Shown: piece by piece, positions 29,018 through 37,918 of the stretch
How the letters are laid out: each line of letters opens with the position of its first letter
Position numbering within the stretch: the stretch's first letter is position 1
DNA from: Escherichia phage phi92
Sequence record: NC_023693.1
Length of the DNA: 64,000 bases
Direction: 5' to 3' (one strand)
Position numbers and translations under genes: made by a program
The notes under the pieces: model-generated
Told to the model about the DNA's origin: nothing
Seen by the model: the letters and a program-made list of their open reading frames with translations, nothing else
Databases searched by the model: none

Positions 29018-29449
29018 TTAATCAGTGAAAATTACGCTTACATCTTCTTTAGAGAAGAGTTTATGATCTTCACCTTTTGTCTCAAGAGTTTCATACAGAT
29101 TAAGAAGTTCTGAAACGTCTTTCTCTACCAGTTTCTTCAATGTTGCAATTTTCTGTTTGCGACTCTTAATACGTTCAGCTACAACCTTACGCTGGTATCC
29201 GGCAGTACGATAACCTGAGAAAGTTACACCAGTGAGACTTGCAGTTACAGGATCGTAGTGACGTTCAATCTGAAATTTATTAAAAGGTACAGCGTCATCA
29301 CGAATAATCTTACCGCCATTACTTACTTGACGAAGACCAGTAACTTGCTCCAGTCGTGCCATAGAAATCTTTGGAGACAGACCAGAGTCTAGGTTCATAC
29401 CATTGTTAATCAGTGCTTTCAGGGTGATTTTGCTGTTCAGTGTACTCAT
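29018..29449 (-). CDS. hypothetical protein
   Basis: 143 aa ORF overlapping the 3' end of the methyltransferase gene by 44 nt. Confidence 0.4.
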   Translation of the reverse strand: MSTLNSKITLKALINNGMNLDSGLSPKISMARLEQVTGLRQVSNGGKIIRDDAVPFNKFQIERHYDPVTASLTGVTFSGYRTAGYQRKVVAERIKSRKQKIATLKKLVEKDVSELLNLYETLETKGEDHKLFSKEDVSVIFTD

Positions 29450-30137
29450 TTAGTCGTTCCTCCGCTTGCTTAAAAATATTTACATCGGCTTCACAGCCAA
29501 AGTATTCTCTACCTGTTAAAAGTGCCGCAACTTGTGTTGTTGCACTTCCAGAGAAGAAGTCTAAGACTACATCTCCTTCGTTGGTGTGTATATTAATAAG
29601 GTCACAAAACAAAGTCAAGTGTTTTTGTGTTGGATGAAAACGATCTGCTCCTTGATAGATAGGATACTCAAACACACCCTTATGGTAGGAAGCATTGAAG
29701 GTTGGCTTCGAACCTTTAACACAAACAATAGCCATCTCTTTAGCGTTACTAAGATAGTTAACACCACTGTTGATGGGTACAGGGTTTGTTTTAATCCATT
29801 CAATAGTACGGAACATACGAAAACCAAGCGGTTCAAGGATTTCACGTAGCTCCTGGATCTTCCAGATATCATACCAAACTATGCAAGTACCACCTTTTCT
29901 AAGCACCCTGTAGGCTTCTTTGAATACTTCTTTAAAGTAAGGAATATCTACAACATCCCAATCACCAAAGTTGTAAGATACACGGAATCTATCCGTATCT
30001 TTTCCAGTCGGCTCTCCAGATTGAAAATTTGTGTCACGAGAAATAGCATATGGTGGGTCAGTAAGAATCAAATCTACACTATTGCTTTCGAGGGTTTGCA
30101 GGTAGTTTAATGCGGTGTTGTTTACAAATTCGCTCAT
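29406..30137 (-). CDS. DNA methyltransferase, beta-class (N6-adenine or N4-cytosine)
   Basis: DPPY catalytic motif (LILTDPPYA) lies N-terminal to the AdoMet-binding motif FFSGSATT; RBS GAAGGAG. Confidence 0.7.
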   Translation of the reverse strand: MSEFVNNTALNYLQTLESNSVDLILTDPPYAISRDTNFQSGEPTGKDTDRFRVSYNFGDWDVVDIPYFKEVFKEAYRVLRKGGTCIVWYDIWKIQELREILEPLGFRMFRTIEWIKTNPVPINSGVNYLSNAKEMAIVCVKGSKPTFNASYHKGVFEYPIYQGADRFHPTQKHLTLFCDLINIHTNEGDVVLDFFSGSATTQVAALLTGREYFGCEADVNIFKQAEERLNEYTEQQNHPESTD

Positions 30138-30149
30138 TATATCTCCTTC

Positions 30150-30176
30150 AAAGAAAAGGAGCCGTTAGGCTCCTTA
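30150..30176 (-). terminator. intrinsic terminator downstream of ssb
   Basis: On the - strand, AAGGAGCC-taac-GGCTCCTT followed by TTCTTT. Confidence 0.5.
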
Positions 30177-30197
30177 TATTCACACAATACTTAACTA

Positions 30198-31145
30198 TTA
30201 GAAACAGTGCAGGAAGTTTCGACCATACTGCAAACCAATAGGAGCAAATGGGATATCATCATCGAAATCTTGAACAACAGGTTCTGATTCTTTCGGTGCT
30301 GGCTCTTTCTTCTCTACTTTTTTAGTTTCTTTCTTAACTTCTTGTACTGAGGTAGACATTCCACGGATAGCAGCAGCTACTTTATCAGACAAAGCAAGAA
30401 CTTCACGAGCAGCTTCAATAATCTCTTCTGCCGTTACAGTTTTACCTGTATGATCACGACAAGCGTTAAGAATTGCGTGTCCAACTGAAGCACCAAGATC
30501 ATAGTCAGTCGCAGCAGCGCCACGATCTTTAGCAATTTCTGCTTTCAGAGTAACAGTTGCAGATTGTACCACACCAGCCAAGTCGAAAGCATCACCTTTC
30601 ACACCAGCACGTAGAAGCTCCAGAGCGCCGTTTACAGCGTGTCCTGTTTCAATCCCTACGGTATCACGTTTTTTGTAGTTAGGCTTGCTACCTTCGTTAT
30701 TAGATGGCTTATTTCCACCTTTTGAAGAAGATTGTGCTTGCTGAACACCTTCTGTTGAAAGAACAGTGATTTTACCTTTAGAGGAGTTGTAGTATGTTTT
30801 GCCATTCCATTCGGAAGGTTTAACATCTATAGTTACTTCTACACCTTTTTCGATAGTAATCCACTTATCACCATCTTTAACTTGCAGGTTTTCATGTTCT
30901 GGGTGCAGTTTAACTTCACCTAGGCTAACCCAAACACCTTTATCATCAGCACCAGCACCTTTCTCTTTAATAAGCAGAGATGCTTTGTGAGTTGATTCAA
31001 TTTTCTTATCTGGCTGACCTGCAACCTTAATATAAGAGACTTTCATTTCATCAAACTTATCCAGTTTGACATATTCAACGATACCTTCAGCCCAGAATGC
31101 TTCTTTTTTAGTACGACGGTCGATTTCAGAATTAATTACTGGCAT
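30198..31145 (-). CDS. ssb: single-stranded DNA-binding protein
   Basis: C-terminal acidic tail ...DFDDDIPF, the canonical SSB client-interaction tip; Gly/Ser-rich linker. Confidence 0.65.
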   Translation of the reverse strand: MPVINSEIDRRTKKEAFWAEGIVEYVKLDKFDEMKVSYIKVAGQPDKKIESTHKASLLIKEKGAGADDKGVWVSLGEVKLHPEHENLQVKDGDKWITIEKGVEVTIDVKPSEWNGKTYYNSSKGKITVLSTEGVQQAQSSSKGGNKPSNNEGSKPNYKKRDTVGIETGHAVNGALELLRAGVKGDAFDLAGVVQSATVTLKAEIAKDRGAAATDYDLGASVGHAILNACRDHTGKTVTAEEIIEAAREVLALSDKVAAAIRGMSTSVQEVKKETKKVEKKEPAPKESEPVVQDFDDDIPFAPIGLQYGRNFLHCF

Positions 31146-31161
31146 AAATTCTCCTCTATAA

Positions 31162-31560
31162 TTACATTACTTTAACACAAAACTCTCGTAAAAGAGTAGC
31201 GTCAGTTTCTTCCAACAGGTATTTACCAAGACCAATACCAAATCCTATTTCACCACTTTCGAAATGGAGGATTTGTATCTTTTCTCCACCAAGGTTAATT
31301 ACTTTTGCTTTTCCAGGATTATCCAAAACATCTCGTATTGTATCCTGTAGTAGCATTAGTTCACGTTTTGTGATAGTGGTTTCAGATATCTCTTTGTTTT
31401 CTACTCTCACTGTTAAACGGTTGTATCCACCAAAGAGACATAGTATTTGAATAAAAAAGGTATTATCTTGAGGTTCAACATCTTTTTTAGTTAGCTCAAG
31501 ACGATTAGTTTCTCTACTGTAGAACGTCTCGACTAAGATTTTAGAACGATTATCTGTCAT
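31162..31560 (-). CDS. hypothetical protein
   Basis: 132 aa ORF. Confidence 0.4.
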   Translation of the reverse strand: MTDNRSKILVETFYSRETNRLELTKKDVEPQDNTFFIQILCLFGGYNRLTVRVENKEISETTITKRELMLLQDTIRDVLDNPGKAKVINLGGEKIQILHFESGEIGFGIGLGKYLLEETDATLLREFCVKVM

Positions 31561-31603
31561 TCAAGTCCTCATAATAACACATAATTACAATGTTTGTCAA
31601 CAC

Positions 31604-32197
31604 TTAAATTTTAAATTCTTCATTGTTAAATGAATCCAGTGTACGTACTTCTGGTTCTTTGGGAATGAAAACGTCTTTTACAAAGCGGAACATAGGGAAA
31701 CGTTCTGCCATTTTACGGACGTGTGCTTCTTTACCTGTGTATCGGTGATTAATAGTGCAAATATTAGTTTTCAATGCAAATTCAAAATCTGGATGATATA
31801 CATAATTTTGACCATCCCAGTAACACAAGCAAATAGCTACATCAAAGTTCCATACGATTTCACTGCGTACACCTTCTTCCATGATCATAAAGTTAAACTT
31901 AAGATCTTTATAGTATGCTTCAAATACCCATTTCAAATGTGGTAGTTCGGCATAAGTGTGTTCTGTTTGCTTAGTAAGTTGTTTAACATTACGTGCACCA
32001 ACACCCAACATCAAAAATTTCTCTACTAATACGAGTGTATTGTGGTTAGGCATACGCAAGTAAATATCAATATCTTGCGCAGGTTTCTCTAATCGCCAAT
32101 CACGTACAGCGCCGCCAGCTACAATTGCAAACGGATCTACCAGTTGGCACATACGTAATACTTCTAAAGCTCGTACTTTTTGATCTTCAATATTCAT
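31604..32197 (-). CDS. minimal nucleotidyltransferase, CCA-adding enzyme/poly(A) polymerase head-domain-like
   Basis: FAIVAGGAVRDWRLEKPAQDIDIYL matches the GGAVRD...DxD signature of class II tRNA nucleotidyltransferases; only 197 aa. Confidence 0.5.
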   Translation of the reverse strand: MNIEDQKVRALEVLRMCQLVDPFAIVAGGAVRDWRLEKPAQDIDIYLRMPNHNTLVLVEKFLMLGVGARNVKQLTKQTEHTYAELPHLKWVFEAYYKDLKFNFMIMEEGVRSEIVWNFDVAICLCYWDGQNYVYHPDFEFALKTNICTINHRYTGKEAHVRKMAERFPMFRFVKDVFIPKEPEVRTLDSFNNEEFKI

Positions 32198-32232
32198 ATT
32201 TTCTCCTATCTCTTATGGTCTTTGCGTTATTC

Positions 32233-32250
32233 TAGATGTTCAAACATCTA
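32233..32250. repeat. 18 bp palindrome TAGATGTT-ca-AACATCTA (candidate operator), next to a hairpin at 32274-32303
   Basis: Perfect 8 bp inverted-repeat arms in the intergenic region between the DNA polymerase and nucleotidyltransferase genes. Confidence 0.4.
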
Positions 32251-32334
32251 ATTATGAAATGGTTTAAAAGTGCGGAACAACCTTGGCAATAACAGATTGT
32301 TCCACATAAAAACTCCTTTAAAATCAAAGAGTTG

Positions 32335-35300
32335 TCAGTGACAAGTTGACCATGAACTACCAACATCGTAACCAGCAGTGAGAGGTACATTAAGATTGTA
32401 ATACTCACCAGCTTTATTAACAGCGATAGATGCTAATTCTCCAGCACGACTGTAGGCTGTAAACCAACCACCTTTCGGAGATTCATGTACGTTAGCCCAA
32501 ATCTTGCCAGTACGTTTCTCTTCCTCTTCTTTCCAGGCATTAACTTTATCCAAACATTCTTTATCAATTTTCTTTTGTTCCTCTGGATCATCAACTTGAG
32601 TCCAACCTAAAGATTCTTTAGAGAACCATTTAAAATGCACCAGATCACGAGTTACTTCAAGCTGTGCTTCATCGTGATATGCAATCATTTGTTGAACGAA
32701 TGACTTATTTTTCCAGTCATCAACAAAAAAGTCAACAGCTAATCCTTCTTCTTCGATAAGATCGTCGTAGATAACCATTGCTCTTTTTGCACAAATAACA
32801 CCACCACTCTGGAACAGAGAGTTAAGTATTGCGTGTGCAGATCGTGTAGGTACTTTCCTACCATCAATACCAAGAATGTATTTCTTACCTGTTTTAACCC
32901 AAAAATCATGCAGACGTTCTTTAAGAAGCGCAAGAGGTTTTGCAGCTTCCCAGAAAGCATCGTATACAAGCTGTCCTGTATACATATCACTACCTATAGT
33001 TTTTGCTACTTTTGCAGCTTGAGCACCATAAGTAATACCATACTTAACAGATTTAGCAGGGCTTCGTTCAAACTTACGACCAATAGTGTCAGAAATACGT
33101 CGAGCCATCATTGTATGAACATCATTAGGTTTTTCCAATAATAGAGCATTACAATATTCGTGTGGTTCCTGCTCGTACCGCCAACAATTCCCTGTAATCG
33201 TGATGCAGTCTTTCTGACGCATAACCCATGTACCGAGTTCTGTTTGTGGACACCAAACATCTTCTACACCCCATTCTTCAATAGTCAGACTTTGAACAGG
33301 GATGTGAGAGCGGTTAGCCAACGTTGCCACTTTTACTTTCTGGTCTTTCGTATTGAAGGCTACAGAAATATTACCCCCATGAACCAGGTATGAGGCAGTT
33401 AAGGCTGCTTCAAAAAGTTCTCCTGGGTTCTGCGCCCAGCGCCAAACAGGTTTTTGTTTATGTTTGTGCCAGTAACCATCCGCAATCAAAAAACCTTCCA
33501 AGAAAGCCACACGCTCGGCATGAGACATATTAACTACACGTTCTACCCACGGAACATCCCATTTACCTTGTTGAACAGAAGTTAAACTATTTACTTGATC
33601 TTGTTCCATGTTAAATGGAGCATTACAAATAATGTTATCTCCTGTGCAAAGCTCGGCAGTTGTTCTGACTTTAGGCACATAAGTATTCCCTGTACTACGA
33701 GTATTAACATACCAACGGTGATCTGCTGTTGCACGATAAGTATGGGATTTTCCTTTAATCTCAAACGTCTTACTATTTTTATAGAAGACCTTACCTTTTA
33801 CTTTAGTCCATTCTTTAAGTCCTGTTTCTGGGTTATATCCTAAGATTTCATCCCCTTCTTGTAGATCGTGATAACCAACCCAACCTTTACGGGTTAGTGC
33901 TTGTGCATCCATAGGTACACAGTAGTGTGATTCTATTTTTGCCTCAAGAGAATCAAAGTCATAACCAATTTGGAAGTATTTTGGAACTTCTACACCAAAT
34001 AAGTTACGCATTTCATATCCGTACAGAGATGTTACACGTGGGATATTTGCTACTAACCTATGTTTCATACGAGACGTAGCTGCATCACACGTTGCAGCAG
34101 GAGTTGGTATACGACCATCAGCCCTTACTGCTGCCAGATAACCTTTATCGTAATCCTCTTCATCTTCTTCCCAATCAGCACCACCTCCTAGAATAGAGTT
34201 CCTACGGTGTTTATACGTAAGATACTGCACAATCTGCGTAGCATAAGGAAACTTTTCACCTAGTGCTTCCAAGTTAGGACAAATATCTTTCTCTTGCCCT
34301 TTTGTAAAGGAAGGGTTAGTAAGCACTTTAACACCACGACCTTTAGCTTTAGCAATACGATCTCTTAGTTTCCATTCCAAAGTTTCTGGTGTGCACTCCA
34401 GATGATCACATCTGTCCTGGCAGAAGTTAGATGCCAATGTTTGATCAACATAGTCACGAATAGCTTTCTCCATTTGTGCTTCATCTTTCTTAATCTTAGT
34501 GCCAGATTTAAGAGTGATATCTTTATCTTTATATTCAGATGGACTCCAACCTAAACCAACTAACCAGTTTTTAATATGTGTCGTGTCGTCTAAAGTAGCA
34601 GGTACTGTAGGATCACAAATAGGTTCTTCTGCTGGAATAGGTAGTTTAAACTCTTTACCTAAAGCAAATAACCACCAACCATCTTCTTTTTGTACAAGTT
34701 CACCAGAATGTTTCTCTGCAAACTTTATCATGTTACTTGAAGGTTCACCATTCTTTTTAAACTGTAGTTTAGGTGGAATGAATGATTTCAAATAACCTTT
34801 AGTAGCAGGTTTAGGAGGTAGCACAGGTTCTGCCTCTAAACGACATGCTTCCATTCGAGCATCCAGATCACGAATATTATCTTCTGCTTGTTTCATATTG
34901 AAAGCAAAGCCACGGTGCTCTTGACGTGTAATAATATCCGCTACACGTTGTTCTAAGTTAAATGGTTCAGACCACTTATTATAATCACCCCACTCTTCCA
35001 TCAAATAACGGAACACTGCGGTGTTAGCTTTGTTATCGTAAATACAGTAATACAGCATATCTGCTGCAAATGTTTTAAATCTTTCAGTTTCAGGGATATT
35101 TTTTCTAAAATCAATTTTAACATCCCCTCCAGCTTTCTTAGATAACTCTGCCAGACTATGACCACCGAAGCGATCAGGGTTTAGTGTCTTACTTAAGATC
35201 ATAGTATCACAAATTTCAATGTTACTATTACCCCAAGTATTGTACTTAATACTGTAGTTGAGTTTAAAAAATAATTTAATTGCCAGTAAGTCAAAGTTAA

Positions 35301-35649
35301 TGATGTTATGTCCAACTACTTTGGTAATTTTATAGTTTGAATTACCTTTAAATTTACCTGTTCCATTTACAAAATCAGGAAAATCTTTAAGAGGGAAATG
35401 GGTATATTCTAAATGCTCATATTCCTCCAGTCGGTATTCATACTTTCCGTCAGTCTCAACATACGGACGACCATCGAAAAGATATTTATCACCATCATGG
35501 AAAGCAATAATCTCTCCAGTATCATGACTTTCGCACACAATACAGTGCATTGCAAAACTATCTTTTAAACGATATGGACTTGCCAAGTAATCTACACTTT
35601 CGTCATTAAGCAAGTTGTTACTTTCAATGTCGAAAGTAAAAGCTCCCAT
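32335..35649 (-). CDS. DNA polymerase, family A (T7-like) with 3'-5' exonuclease domain; intein-containing
   Basis: Exo I motif FDIES near the N-terminus; motif A-like GYDFDSLEAKIESHY; motif B-like RKFERSPAKSVKYGITYGAQAAK; NDVHT; a ~245 aa insertion between motif A and the following conserved segment. Confidence 0.75.
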   Translation of the reverse strand: MGAFTFDIESNNLLNDESVDYLASPYRLKDSFAMHCIVCESHDTGEIIAFHDGDKYLFDGRPYVETDGKYEYRLEEYEHLEYTHFPLKDFPDFVNGTGKFKGNSNYKITKVVGHNIINFDLLAIKLFFKLNYSIKYNTWGNSNIEICDTMILSKTLNPDRFGGHSLAELSKKAGGDVKIDFRKNIPETERFKTFAADMLYYCIYDNKANTAVFRYLMEEWGDYNKWSEPFNLEQRVADIITRQEHRGFAFNMKQAEDNIRDLDARMEACRLEAEPVLPPKPATKGYLKSFIPPKLQFKKNGEPSSNMIKFAEKHSGELVQKEDGWWLFALGKEFKLPIPAEEPICDPTVPATLDDTTHIKNWLVGLGWSPSEYKDKDITLKSGTKIKKDEAQMEKAIRDYVDQTLASNFCQDRCDHLECTPETLEWKLRDRIAKAKGRGVKVLTNPSFTKGQEKDICPNLEALGEKFPYATQIVQYLTYKHRRNSILGGGADWEEDEEDYDKGYLAAVRADGRIPTPAATCDAATSRMKHRLVANIPRVTSLYGYEMRNLFGVEVPKYFQIGYDFDSLEAKIESHYCVPMDAQALTRKGWVGYHDLQEGDEILGYNPETGLKEWTKVKGKVFYKNSKTFEIKGKSHTYRATADHRWYVNTRSTGNTYVPKVRTTAELCTGDNIICNAPFNMEQDQVNSLTSVQQGKWDVPWVERVVNMSHAERVAFLEGFLIADGYWHKHKQKPVWRWAQNPGELFEAALTASYLVHGGNISVAFNTKDQKVKVATLANRSHIPVQSLTIEEWGVEDVWCPQTELGTWVMRQKDCITITGNCWRYEQEPHEYCNALLLEKPNDVHTMMARRISDTIGRKFERSPAKSVKYGITYGAQAAKVAKTIGSDMYTGQLVYDAFWEAAKPLALLKERLHDFWVKTGKKYILGIDGRKVPTRSAHAILNSLFQSGGVICAKRAMVIYDDLIEEEGLAVDFFVDDWKNKSFVQQMIAYHDEAQLEVTRDLVHFKWFSKESLGWTQVDDPEEQKKIDKECLDKVNAWKEEEEKRTGKIWANVHESPKGGWFTAYSRAGELASIAVNKAGEYYNLNVPLTAGYDVGSSWSTCH
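33187..33921 (-). mobile_element. intein (aa 577-821 of the polymerase ORF) with one LAGLIDADG-like motif
   Basis: Starts with Cys (CVPMD...), TxxH block (TADHRW), LAGLIDADG-like FLEGFLIADGY, ends ...ITGN with +1 Cys (CWRY); removing it restores a contiguous motif A segment. Confidence 0.6.
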
Positions 35650-36145: not shown

Positions 36146-37918
36146 TTAATAAGAACCAGCAGAAATATTTTCTGGGTTACTTGTGTATTGATCGTAATCG
36201 TGAAGTGTAGCTGTTTTAATCTCATAGAAGAAACTACCTGCTGCACCAGTCTCTGAGAACTCACGGTTCTTTAGAATGTAGCAATATGTGCGGTTACGTT
36301 CCATAGGATCTTCAGCTTGTTTATCACGCTCCAGCGCAATTGTGATACCAGCACCTTTAGCAAGGAAGCTACTACCCATTGCATCATCTTCTACAATATG
36401 TTCATTACTATTGTTAGAAGACTTTTTAACGTGTGAAATTACAACAATGGTTATTGCATACTCTTTCATAATGCGTTTGAGCCACGTCGCAAGTTCCTCT
36501 TGTTGTGACACGTCCATACCAGAAAGCAAATCAGAATAAGGGTCGATAACAAGAATGGTTACTCCGAAATAAATAATCATTTCCAGAACCTTCTCTTTAA
36601 TCACATCTACGTTAGCTCCACGATCATCACAAACATAGAAACGTGGTGTTCCATCTTCTCGTTCGTAAAAATCACGAATCTTTTCCTCATTATCTTTTAA
36701 AATCTTTTCCTTCTCTTCTTTCGTTTTACGGTGAAGAGGGATATGCAAGAATGAAGACAGTAAGTTACGAGAATACTTCTTATACGTTGCCTCCAAAGAT
36801 AAAATACCAAGAGTATGTTCTGGATGTGCAAGAATAATGTGCTTCGTAATCTCGTTAACCAACAGTGTCTTACCGATACTTGTTTTTGCAAGTATAACAG
36901 TAATTTCTTCTTCTACCAAGCCTCCACCTAACATATTTGAAGCAACACGCATGAATGGAGGAAGGGTGATCATTTTAGCTTCCAGGCATTCCAAGGCTGC
37001 TTCATACAGTACGTTAGAAGCGTAAACACCAGCAGGTGTGTACAGTTTAGCTTTGAAAAAGCGATCAATAAAATGATCAATTTTTCCTTCTACTAGCGCC
37101 TGGTTAGGATCTTTAACATCCGTTAGTTCCATCACGTAAACTTTATTACGTGGTAAGATTTTAACACATTTCTCAACTGCTGCACGTCCAGCTTCATCAT
37201 TATCCATACATAGAACAATCTTTTTAAATTGATCTAAGAATTTATAACGATGTTGAAGCTGCTTATGCAGAGATGTTTCGCCACAAGTACCAGATACTAC
37301 AGCAGGAACAGGATATTTACCACCCTTGTTATAATCTTTTAGCATCTGTGTTGCAGCCAGCATATCGTGTTCACCACCAACGATTAGAATAGTACCGCTG
37401 TGGTTACGATATTTAAACTCCCCAAAAAGATCACAATCCTTTCCTGTTTCACCGATAGGATGTGAGAAATCTTTTGGATCGATACGTTGTTTATACCCAG
37501 CAATATTGTAATCTTTAGTTGTAGGGTACAGTGTTGAAATTACTTCGCCAGTAGCTTCATCGTACATATAACGTACACCGAAAGGCTTAGAGATATCTTC
37601 ACGAATACCTCGATAACCTTTTGGATTAGTTCCAGTGCTGGCTTTTAGTTTATCATGTACTTCTGGATTAAACTCACTACCCAAGATATCCTCCTCTTCA
37701 ATTTCTTCGCCGTGTGCATTTAACCATTTTTGATCAGGGATAGTAAAGCCACAAGAAAAACAATGTGCGCCTCGATGGTCTTCATCGGCATCTAAGCCAT
37801 ATACCATCAAATTGTTTTGTGATCGATCACGCCCTCCTTTCATACAACGAGGACACCCAGTATGTCCTTCTTGACTTAGATCAATGTTATACCCATATTT
37901 ATTTACAACATAAGACAC
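36146..37918 (-). CDS. bifunctional DNA primase/helicase (T7 gp4-like)
   Basis: N-terminal zinc ribbon (CPRC...CFSCG), TOPRIM-like ILIVGGEHD, DnaB-like helicase Walker A (AKTSIGKT) and downstream helicase motifs. Confidence 0.7.
   Translation of the reverse strand: MSYVVNKYGYNIDLSQEGHTGCPRCMKGGRDRSQNNLMVYGLDADEDHRGAHCFSCGFTIPDQKWLNAHGEEIEEEDILGSEFNPEVHDKLKASTGTNPKGYRGIREDISKPFGVRYMYDEATGEVISTLYPTTKDYNIAGYKQRIDPKDFSHPIGETGKDCDLFGEFKYRNHSGTILIVGGEHDMLAATQMLKDYNKGGKYPVPAVVSGTCGETSLHKQLQHRYKFLDQFKKIVLCMDNDEAGRAAVEKCVKILPRNKVYVMELTDVKDPNQALVEGKIDHFIDRFFKAKLYTPAGVYASNVLYEAALECLEAKMITLPPFMRVASNMLGGGLVEEEITVILAKTSIGKTLLVNEITKHIILAHPEHTLGILSLEATYKKYSRNLLSSFLHIPLHRKTKEEKEKILKDNEEKIRDFYEREDGTPRFYVCDDRGANVDVIKEKVLEMIIYFGVTILVIDPYSDLLSGMDVSQQEELATWLKRIMKEYAITIVVISHVKKSSNNSNEHIVEDDAMGSSFLAKGAGITIALERDKQAEDPMERNRTYCYILKNREFSETGAAGSFFYEIKTATLHDYDQYTSNPENISAGSY

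Follow-up and report, generated by a model that had tools for sequence, protein, structure and literature searches.

The DNA polymerase gene of Escherichia phage phi92, which lies in the 64,000-nucleotide stretch of its genome analysed here (NC_023693.1; below, the window), carries 245 extra codons close to those for the catalytic centre, and the locus raises the question of what this insert is, by which chemistry it could leave the protein and whether it is able to move between phages. According to the data presented below it is very probably a functional and mobile intein, which would be spliced by the class 1 route in an active site resembling that of class 3 inteins and would be spread by homing. 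As an object this intein is already known: copies with 100% amino acid identity occupy the same site of the same gene in phages PaulScherrer (Bas60, MZ501100, bas60_0044) and SD2 (PQ821640), where the annotation reads “intein-containing DNA polymerase precursor”, accompanied in PaulScherrer by mat_peptide features. Both are known from annotation alone, with no description of the feature, and the paper on the BASEL collection identified inteins by comparative annotation (PMC8594841). With the element annotated in public records before, it has little novelty as a finding, and, inteins being common in phage replication genes, it adds little as an object. The remaining interest is at the level of its family, an abundant phage lineage with an invariant Cys1...Trp/Cys/Thr...Gly-Asn signature and a single-LAGLIDADG endonuclease.

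The precursor is encoded by a single open reading frame at positions 32335–35649 of the minus strand (1104 amino acids plus stop). It matches Pfam DNA_pol_A (PF00476) above the cut-off (E = 1.1e-10, residues 839–1002) and phrog_17 of PHROG (E = 3.5e-106), while the sequence of the spliced polymerase aligns to T7 gp5 with E = 7.6e-21. Both motif A and motif B are alignable with T7 gp5, as expected for a T7-like family A DNA polymerase, and the motif B segment SPAKSVKYGITYGA is paired with RDNAKTFIYGFLYGA of T7. The N-extein (residues 1–576; 33922–35649, minus strand), delimited by translation and by the T7 gp5 alignment, comprises the exonuclease and the N-terminal part of the polymerase and ends in GYDFDSLEAKIESHY (33922–33966, minus strand). 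A preliminary description of this DNA, made from its letters alone, had called this segment motif A-like, and correctly so, because the alignment matches D564 to D475, the catalytic aspartate of motif A in T7; Y576 corresponds to F487. The insertion point is located 12 residues past this aspartate, in the palm domain, at the equivalent of T7 gp5 F487/M488 (here and below the slash marks a junction). The C-extein (residues 822–1104 plus stop; 32335–33186, minus strand), assigned by translation, Pfam and the T7 alignment, contains polymerase motifs B and C and opens with the nucleophile Cys+1 (codon 33184–33186) in CWRYEQEPHEY.

Between the two exteins, at 33187–33921 of the minus strand, 245 in-frame residues without a stop (precursor residues 577–821, Cys1 to Asn245) run from CVPMDAQ to CITITGN, that is CVPMDAQALTRKGW...DVWCPQTELGTWVMRQKDCITITGN, immediately after GYDFDSLEAKIESHY and immediately before CWRYEQEPHEY. 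By our own arithmetic, a random insert of 245 codons would stay open with a chance of about (61/64)^245, or ~8e-6. The limits of the intein are fixed by its exact absence from intein-free alleles, by its fold and by annotation. The gene is matched at about 99%, in two pieces that cover 78% of it, by the sister phages EmilieFrey, alia, muut, VEcB and others; they lack exactly 735 bp, or 245 amino acids, between flanks that are ~99% identical. In the protein alignment this appears as an exact gap of 245 residues with ...ESHY joined to CWRY..., and in DNA as the junction ...CACTAC/TGTTGG.... Around the site the EmilieFrey allele reads ...AATCACACTAC/TGTTGGCGGTACGAG... and the Phapecoctavirus allele ...TCGCATTAT/ACGTGGAGATATGAT.... 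The coordinates and the length given in the preliminary description thus proved exact, the strand, which it had left unstated, being minus; the fusion of ESHY to CWRYEQEPHEY that it expected from excision exists as a natural intein-free allele, and the comparison with intein-free and T7-like polymerases that it proposed as a check gave the precise gap and the F487/M488 site. Since TGT stands at both ends of the insert, its boundary in DNA is ambiguous by one codon, and the frame that begins with Cys and ends with Asn is the chemically sensible choice. The Cys codons at both junctions also account for the PaulScherrer mat_peptide (3846–4580 in locus L001), which is shifted by one codon and reads VPM...GNC instead of Cys...Asn.

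The fold of the insert was evaluated with an AlphaFold2 model built from a 30-sequence alignment (pLDDT 94.5, pTM 0.91), in which a HINT domain and a LAGLIDADG domain are combined, as an intein with a LAGLIDADG-like motif, the initial proposal, should be. A Foldseek search of the PDB placed the TliVMA intein first (E = 1.5e-8, TMq 0.74) and also returned PI-SceI, PhoVMA and PI-PfuI; the best match among mini-inteins was the class 3 AceL NrdHF intein (PDB 6zgq, TMt 0.76). There were 41 matches at E ≤ 1e-3, and these best 41 are all inteins, BIL domains or Hedgehog HINT domains. A single-sequence search of the PDB with the 245-residue segment gave nothing better than E > 0.3 and curated libraries gave no intein match either, so that a family profile was needed. 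A word-indexed search supplied ten relatives from different host proteins and from other positions in polymerases, and nine trimmed inteins were combined into a profile, which matched the solved inteins Spl DnaX (3.6e-5), NrdJ-1 (4.6e-5) and AceL NrdHF (6.9e-4) with the block B TxxH aligned.

The residues required at the splice sites are all in place. With the blocks numbered as by Tori et al. (PMC2807308), block A CVPMDAQALTRKGW (33880–33921, minus strand) provides the nucleophile Cys1 (33919–33921), whose position is supported by family conservation and by the hhalign alignment to the Bethlehem RDF intein, which starts from residue 1. The block B core TADHRW (33712–33729, minus strand), placed by alignment of TxxH to solved inteins, contains Thr65 (B:7), His68 (B:10), Arg69 (B:11) and Trp70 (B:12). 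Blocks F and G, DVWCPQTELGTWVMRQKDCITITGN (33187–33261, minus strand), contain Cys224 (F:4, codon 33250–33252), Trp232, Thr243 (G:5), Gly244 (G:6) and Asn245 (G:7), and Cys+1 follows. The elements listed in the preliminary description, namely the initial Cys, the TxxH block (TADH, residues 65–68), FLEGFLIADGY (residues 140–150), the final GN (residues 244–245) and the Cys after it, were all found in the translation. The common, though not obligatory, penultimate His, a helper in the cyclisation of Asn, is replaced by Gly244.

These observations leave hardly any room for the idea of a native accessory domain, or of an insertion retained in the mature polymerase. It could appeal to the lack of direct matches to HINT models of Pfam, NCBIfam or PHROG. 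It does not agree, however, with polymerases of sister phages that are ~99% identical and lack exactly this segment rather than keeping it as a domain of their own, with interruption of the palm so near the catalytic Asp, with a confident intein fold and canonical Cys1, TxxH and Asn-Cys ends, and with homologues of the segment elsewhere in polymerases and in host proteins of unrelated kinds. We consider this explanation effectively refuted and its residual probability negligible.

Functional splicing is inferred because intein-bearing isolates are viable (PaulScherrer, for which GenBank lists E. coli K-12 as host, is one of them), because the insertion lies within a dozen residues of the catalytic Asp and because the splice residues are invariant. 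After translation the HINT domain would excise itself and ligate ...KIESHY to CWRYEQ..., restoring the polymerase; the predicted junction KIESHY-CWRYEQ corresponds to the peptide IESHYCWR and, in a longer form, to KIESHYCWRYEQEPHEY. Judging from the set of conserved residues, the class 1 route is most likely: Thr65 and His68 would help an N-to-S acyl shift at Cys1, which would be succeeded by transthioesterification to Cys+1, cyclisation of Asn245 and an S-to-N shift. Gly244 stands where the helper His is usually found; on the analogy of the AceL NrdHF intein, Arg69 probably acts in place of this His. Cys224, occupying a position that usually belongs to Asp in class 1 and to the nucleophile in class 3, probably coordinates events at both junctions.

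Whether the Gly-Asn ending is a defect was decided by the family. A profile search among 1.84 billion cluster representatives collected 7,947 proteins at E ≤ 1e-3, 562 of them at ≤ 1e-30. Residues at the ends were counted for 167 intein ends of 158 family proteins, which combine the best 150 of the 7,947 matches with the earlier ones. Cys at position 1 and Asn at G:7 are present in 167/167, Gly at G:6 in 166/167 and Thr at G:5 in 165/167, while the +1 residue is Ser in 88, Thr in 45 and Cys in 34 of the 167. Full-length members retain TxxHxW in 114/127 cases and the “WC” of block F in 117/127; B:11 is Lys or Arg, and W223, C224, T227, W232, T243, G244 and N245 are invariant in family alignments. 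Being near-invariant, the penultimate Gly should be considered a hallmark of the family and not a lesion; thus the preliminary description, which regarded it as unusual, was right with respect to the canonical His but not within this family. The median length of family inteins is 250 amino acids. They are inserted in a DUF6321 protein (FDVYP/SAYANGW), in several positions of family A polymerases including motif B, and also at the very site occupied in the window, there with Thr+1 (R..HY/TWRYDNG).

Among the top matches the commonest location is the small DUF6321-type protein, which accounts for at least 40 of 165 inteins (metagenomic P0002–P0006, P0011–P0014 and others) and houses both full-length and mini-intein (163 amino acids) versions at one and the same position. 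Some metagenomic proteins contain two to four inteins of the family.

Two experimentally studied inteins are close enough to make splicing with a Gly-Asn end plausible. The Bethlehem RDF (phosphoesterase) intein, gp52 in AY500153 and gp51 in Kelley et al. 2016, shares Cys1, TxxH-Arg and VWC with the intein of phi92; reading C1...ITANHRV...EVWCLRVPNGRFFIEDGGKIHLTGN/S, it belongs to the same VWC...TGN type, with the ...LTGN/S end and a spacing of 21 residues. It is spliced completely in E. coli, and substitution of its penultimate Gly by His (G316H) slows the reaction, so that precursor accumulates (PMC5050341). It differs in length (317 amino acids), in its larger endonuclease domain, in Val at B:12, in the host protein and in its origin from an actinobacteriophage. 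The split AceL NrdHF intein shares the Thr-Gly-Asn end (T144-G145-N146), Arg at B:11 and Cys at F:4, and likewise has no helper His at F:13 or G:6. Its Arg69 contacts the carbonyl of the C-terminal scissile bond; R69A slows splicing and G145H abolishes activity, and a phage origin is considered probable (PMC7891396). R69, T243, G244 and N245 of the window intein parallel this arrangement, whereas the AceL NrdHF intein is naturally split, lacks an endonuclease domain, has Ala1, Met at B:12 and Ser at B:7 and belongs to class 3 by experiment.

The similarity to class 3 is not confined to this pair. The signature of class 3 consists of Trp at B:12, Cys at F:4 and Thr at G:5 (PMC2807308), and the window intein has all three, W70, C224 and T243, with F:4 assigned by sequence. 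Its C224 is separated from N245 by 21 residues, as C118 is from N139 in Msm DnaBi1 (PMC6195587); the terminal Asn of Mch DnaB1, set at 145 from T143 at G:5, is equally far from C124 (PMC7664689). The MP-Be intein, the prototype of class 3 and named “MP-Be DnaB” in InBase, was taken from the genome of mycobacteriophage Bethlehem, where it resides in TerL gp11; its residues S62, H65, W67, C320, H328, F330, T339, H340 and N341 agree with the published numbering, and the distance from C320 to N341 is again 21 residues. MP-Be VPVKCIGIDTEDHLFQVSRSRILTHN/T aligns gaplessly to EDVWCPQTELGTWVMRQKDCITITGN/C of the window intein, and its block B SASHGW aligns to TADHRW. Since a profile of blocks F and G (the C-terminal 46 residues) matched no solved intein, the F:4 assignment rests on this gapless manual alignment and the spacing. 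The triplet as a whole is present in the geometry of class 3. Canonical class 3 inteins (MP-Be, Msm DnaBi1, Mch DnaB1) also share a block A of the type T..GW....DL..GD..LG and an association with phages. They differ in having no N-terminal nucleophile, usually no Thr at B:7 and a preserved penultimate His; they reside mostly in P-loops of helicases and terminases, and their sequence similarity to the window family is weak.

One can assume on this basis that splicing follows a class 3 or dual-nucleophile scheme, in which Cys224 attacks the N-terminal junction first, forming a branched thioester at block F, and the N-extein is then passed to Cys+1, with Cys1 being dispensable or serving as a parallel entry. 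The full signature, the gapless alignment with the spacing of three proven class 3 inteins, the proximity in structure and sequence to AceL NrdHF (TMt 0.76 and E = 6.9e-4) with its T-G-N end and Arg B:11 (PMC7891396), and the prevalence of Ser and Thr at +1, as in class 3, all speak in its favour. Nevertheless we regard this scheme as unlikely. An unneeded Cys1 would drift, as it did in class 3, where Pro, Ala and other residues are found instead, yet it is preserved in every one of the 167 ends; the Thr of TxxH at B:7 is kept, and class 3 inteins are generally without it (PMC6195587). In hhalign comparisons the family reaches a probability of only 11% with MP-Be, over the N-terminal 68 columns, and of 94% (E = 1.1e-7) with the Cys1-bearing Bethlehem RDF intein. 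Because Cys1 is present, the window intein also lies outside class 3 under the working definition used by Hoffmann et al., which demands no Cys at N1:1 together with Cys at C2:4 (PMC7891396). The class 1 route with a class-3-like active site is for these reasons preferred.

A broader proposal, to which we give a low probability, is that we deal with a very large intein family, carried mainly by phages and practically undescribed, which would combine class 1 machinery (Cys1, Thr B:7) with the class 3 triplet and spacing and with Gly G:6 and Arg or Lys B:11, use Cys224 as a second nucleophile and encode a dimerising single-LAGLIDADG enzyme. Such a hybrid active site in a large metagenomic family bears on the evolution of class 3. 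If Cys224 acts as a nucleophile beside Cys1, the family may represent a living “two-nucleophile” intermediate, from which class 3 would arise by loss of Cys1, and this would meet the objection that an evolution of class 3 from class 1 is impossible (PMC7664689). For protein engineering the family could furnish splicing domains that are compact and independent of His.

The ability of the intein to move depends on its second domain. Residues ~106–205 (33307–33606, minus strand), delimited by the secondary structure of the AlphaFold2 model, form a homing-endonuclease domain with a single LAGLIDADG unit, the LAGLIDADG helix being HAERVAFLEGFLIADGY (33472–33522, minus strand). The helices and strands (H134–148, E149–152, E159–164, H168–180, E185–189, E197–201) compose one alpha-beta-beta-alpha-beta-beta core of about 100 residues, a single half-domain, and the LAGLIDADG helix terminates at the acidic Asp148. 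PI-SceI and PI-PfuI have two LAGLIDADG motifs and additional DNA-recognition regions. Together with the TliVMA and PhoVMA inteins they share with the window intein the HINT domain interrupted by a LAGLIDADG endonuclease, but they are 360–540 amino acids long, whereas the single half-domain described here is rather like a subunit of a homodimeric enzyme of the I-CreI type. D148, G149 and Q164 are conserved at ≥90% in the 30-sequence family alignment, in which relatives are ~30% identical, and this conservation, along with low dN/dS, argues for an active and presumably homodimeric endonuclease. During co-infection this enzyme would cleave polymerase alleles without the intein, and the intein would be copied into them.

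The distribution of the intein bears traces of such transfer. It is present in 33 phage records of the genera Justusliebigvirus and Phapecoctavirus with an amino acid identity of at least 96.7%, except for one copy at 89%. In a comparison of the window (Justusliebigvirus) with ESCO5 (Phapecoctavirus), nucleotide identity is 91.7% for the intein and 74.8% for the exteins. ESCO5 and its congener nieznany are 96–100% identical far from the site and 60–93% identical within approximately −300 to +180 nucleotides of it, and near the site the ESCO5 flank CWRYEPEPHEY resembles that of Justusliebigvirus, not TWRYDNPDHAY of nieznany. A dip in identity with a switch of the flank is what homing with co-conversion would predict; some of the dip on the downstream side coincides with another intein of nieznany, inserted in motif B 150 nucleotides away. 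The intein is under purifying selection: 52 of the 58 codons that differ do so synonymously, and dN/dS equals 0.022 for the whole intein and 0.040 for the endonuclease domain. Since it is exactly absent from ~99% identical sisters, matches the fold of solved inteins and is better conserved between genera than its exteins, we consider it mobile.

Several points weigh against a functional and mobile class 1 intein. A class 3 or mixed route retains some likelihood, given the full Trp/Cys/Thr triplet and its spacing, which is that of class 3. Dimerisation would be required, because there is one LAGLIDADG motif per chain, unlike the two-motif PI-SceI and PI-PfuI. Palindromy of the target site is not significant once multiple testing is allowed for, the best of about 40 centres tested having 7/11 symmetric positions. 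No HINT or intein model recognises the 245-residue segment in direct Pfam, NCBIfam and PHROG scans, and the match to Pfam LAGLIDADG_3 is below threshold (E = 0.084, 13.6 versus the cut-off of 22.5 bits). Finally, we infer splicing, the order of its chemical steps, the role of Arg69, the endonuclease activity and dimerisation, while the exact insertion, the fold, conservation in the family, horizontal transfer and purifying selection are seen in the data.

Part of these points would fit an intein that still splices but no longer moves by itself, its half-domain being a degenerate remnant; the intein would be retained only since imprecise loss would kill the polymerase, and would be spread by general recombination or with the aid of other phage endonucleases. 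The only LAGLIDADG motif in a domain of ~100 residues, the sub-threshold LAGLIDADG_3 match and the lack of a clear palindromic target are compatible with decay, as are free-standing HNH endonuclease genes adjoining the polymerase gene in sister phages and mini-inteins of the family without an endonuclease domain (P0006, P0008, P0009). We find such a loss of mobility improbable, because even the endonuclease domain evolves at the low dN/dS given above and preserves the catalytic-type Asp148-Gly149 and Gln164 across relatives of such low identity, because the median length shows that the compact domain is a conserved state and no one-off decay, and because the recent transfer between genera was accompanied by co-conversion-like tracts. 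The HNH gene, moreover, does not track the intein, since it is present in intein-free EmilieFrey and absent from the intein-bearing window. Active homing remains, therefore, the preferred explanation.

The HNH open reading frame itself, free-standing and ~590 nucleotides long, adjoins the polymerase gene on its downstream side in PaulScherrer, in SD2, where it is annotated as HNH endonuclease, and in EmilieFrey (2380–2967 in locus L001, 377–973 in L003 and 2377–2973 in L002). At the corresponding place downstream of the polymerase stop the window has the intergenic segment 32198–32334. Window positions 31127–32284 align to 1301–2458 of L001 at 96.5%, and 50 nucleotides remain from there to the polymerase stop. 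With its presence or absence the locus shows another polymorphism of a mobile element, independent of the first, and as a driver of intein mobility this gene was rejected.

The polymerase gene of the window is ~99% identical in nucleotide sequence to those of the Justusliebigvirus (Stephanstirmvirinae) phages PD06, PD211, PD114, SD2 and PaulScherrer. Most other records with the intein have “DNA polymerase I” or “hypothetical protein” as the name of this gene. As most of the 33 records omit the intein and a paper of 2024 states that inteins have not been reported in coliphages (PMC11162368), both annotation and awareness lag behind. Natural coliphages with and without the intein, such as Bas60 and Bas61 of the BASEL collection, with E. 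coli K-12 as host in GenBank, offer an easy system for studying homing and the burden that an intein places on an essential polymerase.

A six-frame scan of the whole window with the family profile revealed no further intein of this family. The genes on either side of the polymerase gene (29406–32197, minus strand) match the conserved replication module of Stephanstirmvirinae: a Dam-like methyltransferase (29406–30137), a protein of 315 amino acids (30198–31145), labelled ssDNA-binding protein in ESCO5, a nucleotidyltransferase (31604–32197) and, upstream of the polymerase gene, a primase/helicase (36146–37918).

The Phapecoctavirus polymerases of Escherichia phage nieznany (NC_052659; 1605–5174 in locus L005) and of ukendt, nepoznato and phiWec187 do not have the motif A intein. 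They carry in motif B a different intein of the Cys1...TGN family, 324 amino acids long (SVKYG/CVPVDN...ITLTGN/CTYGAQ), which has two LAGLIDADG motifs, is 32% identical to the window intein and is followed by Cys instead of Ile at +1. A Phapecoctavirus-type polymerase with the motif B intein was also encountered in four records of ~146 kb deposited as “Campylobacter phage” A150, A145, C3 and A110a (MG065639, MG065645, MG065656 and MG065689). Their tblastn identity and length are the same as for the E. coli phages, and the host assignment of these records may be wrong or the samples contaminated.

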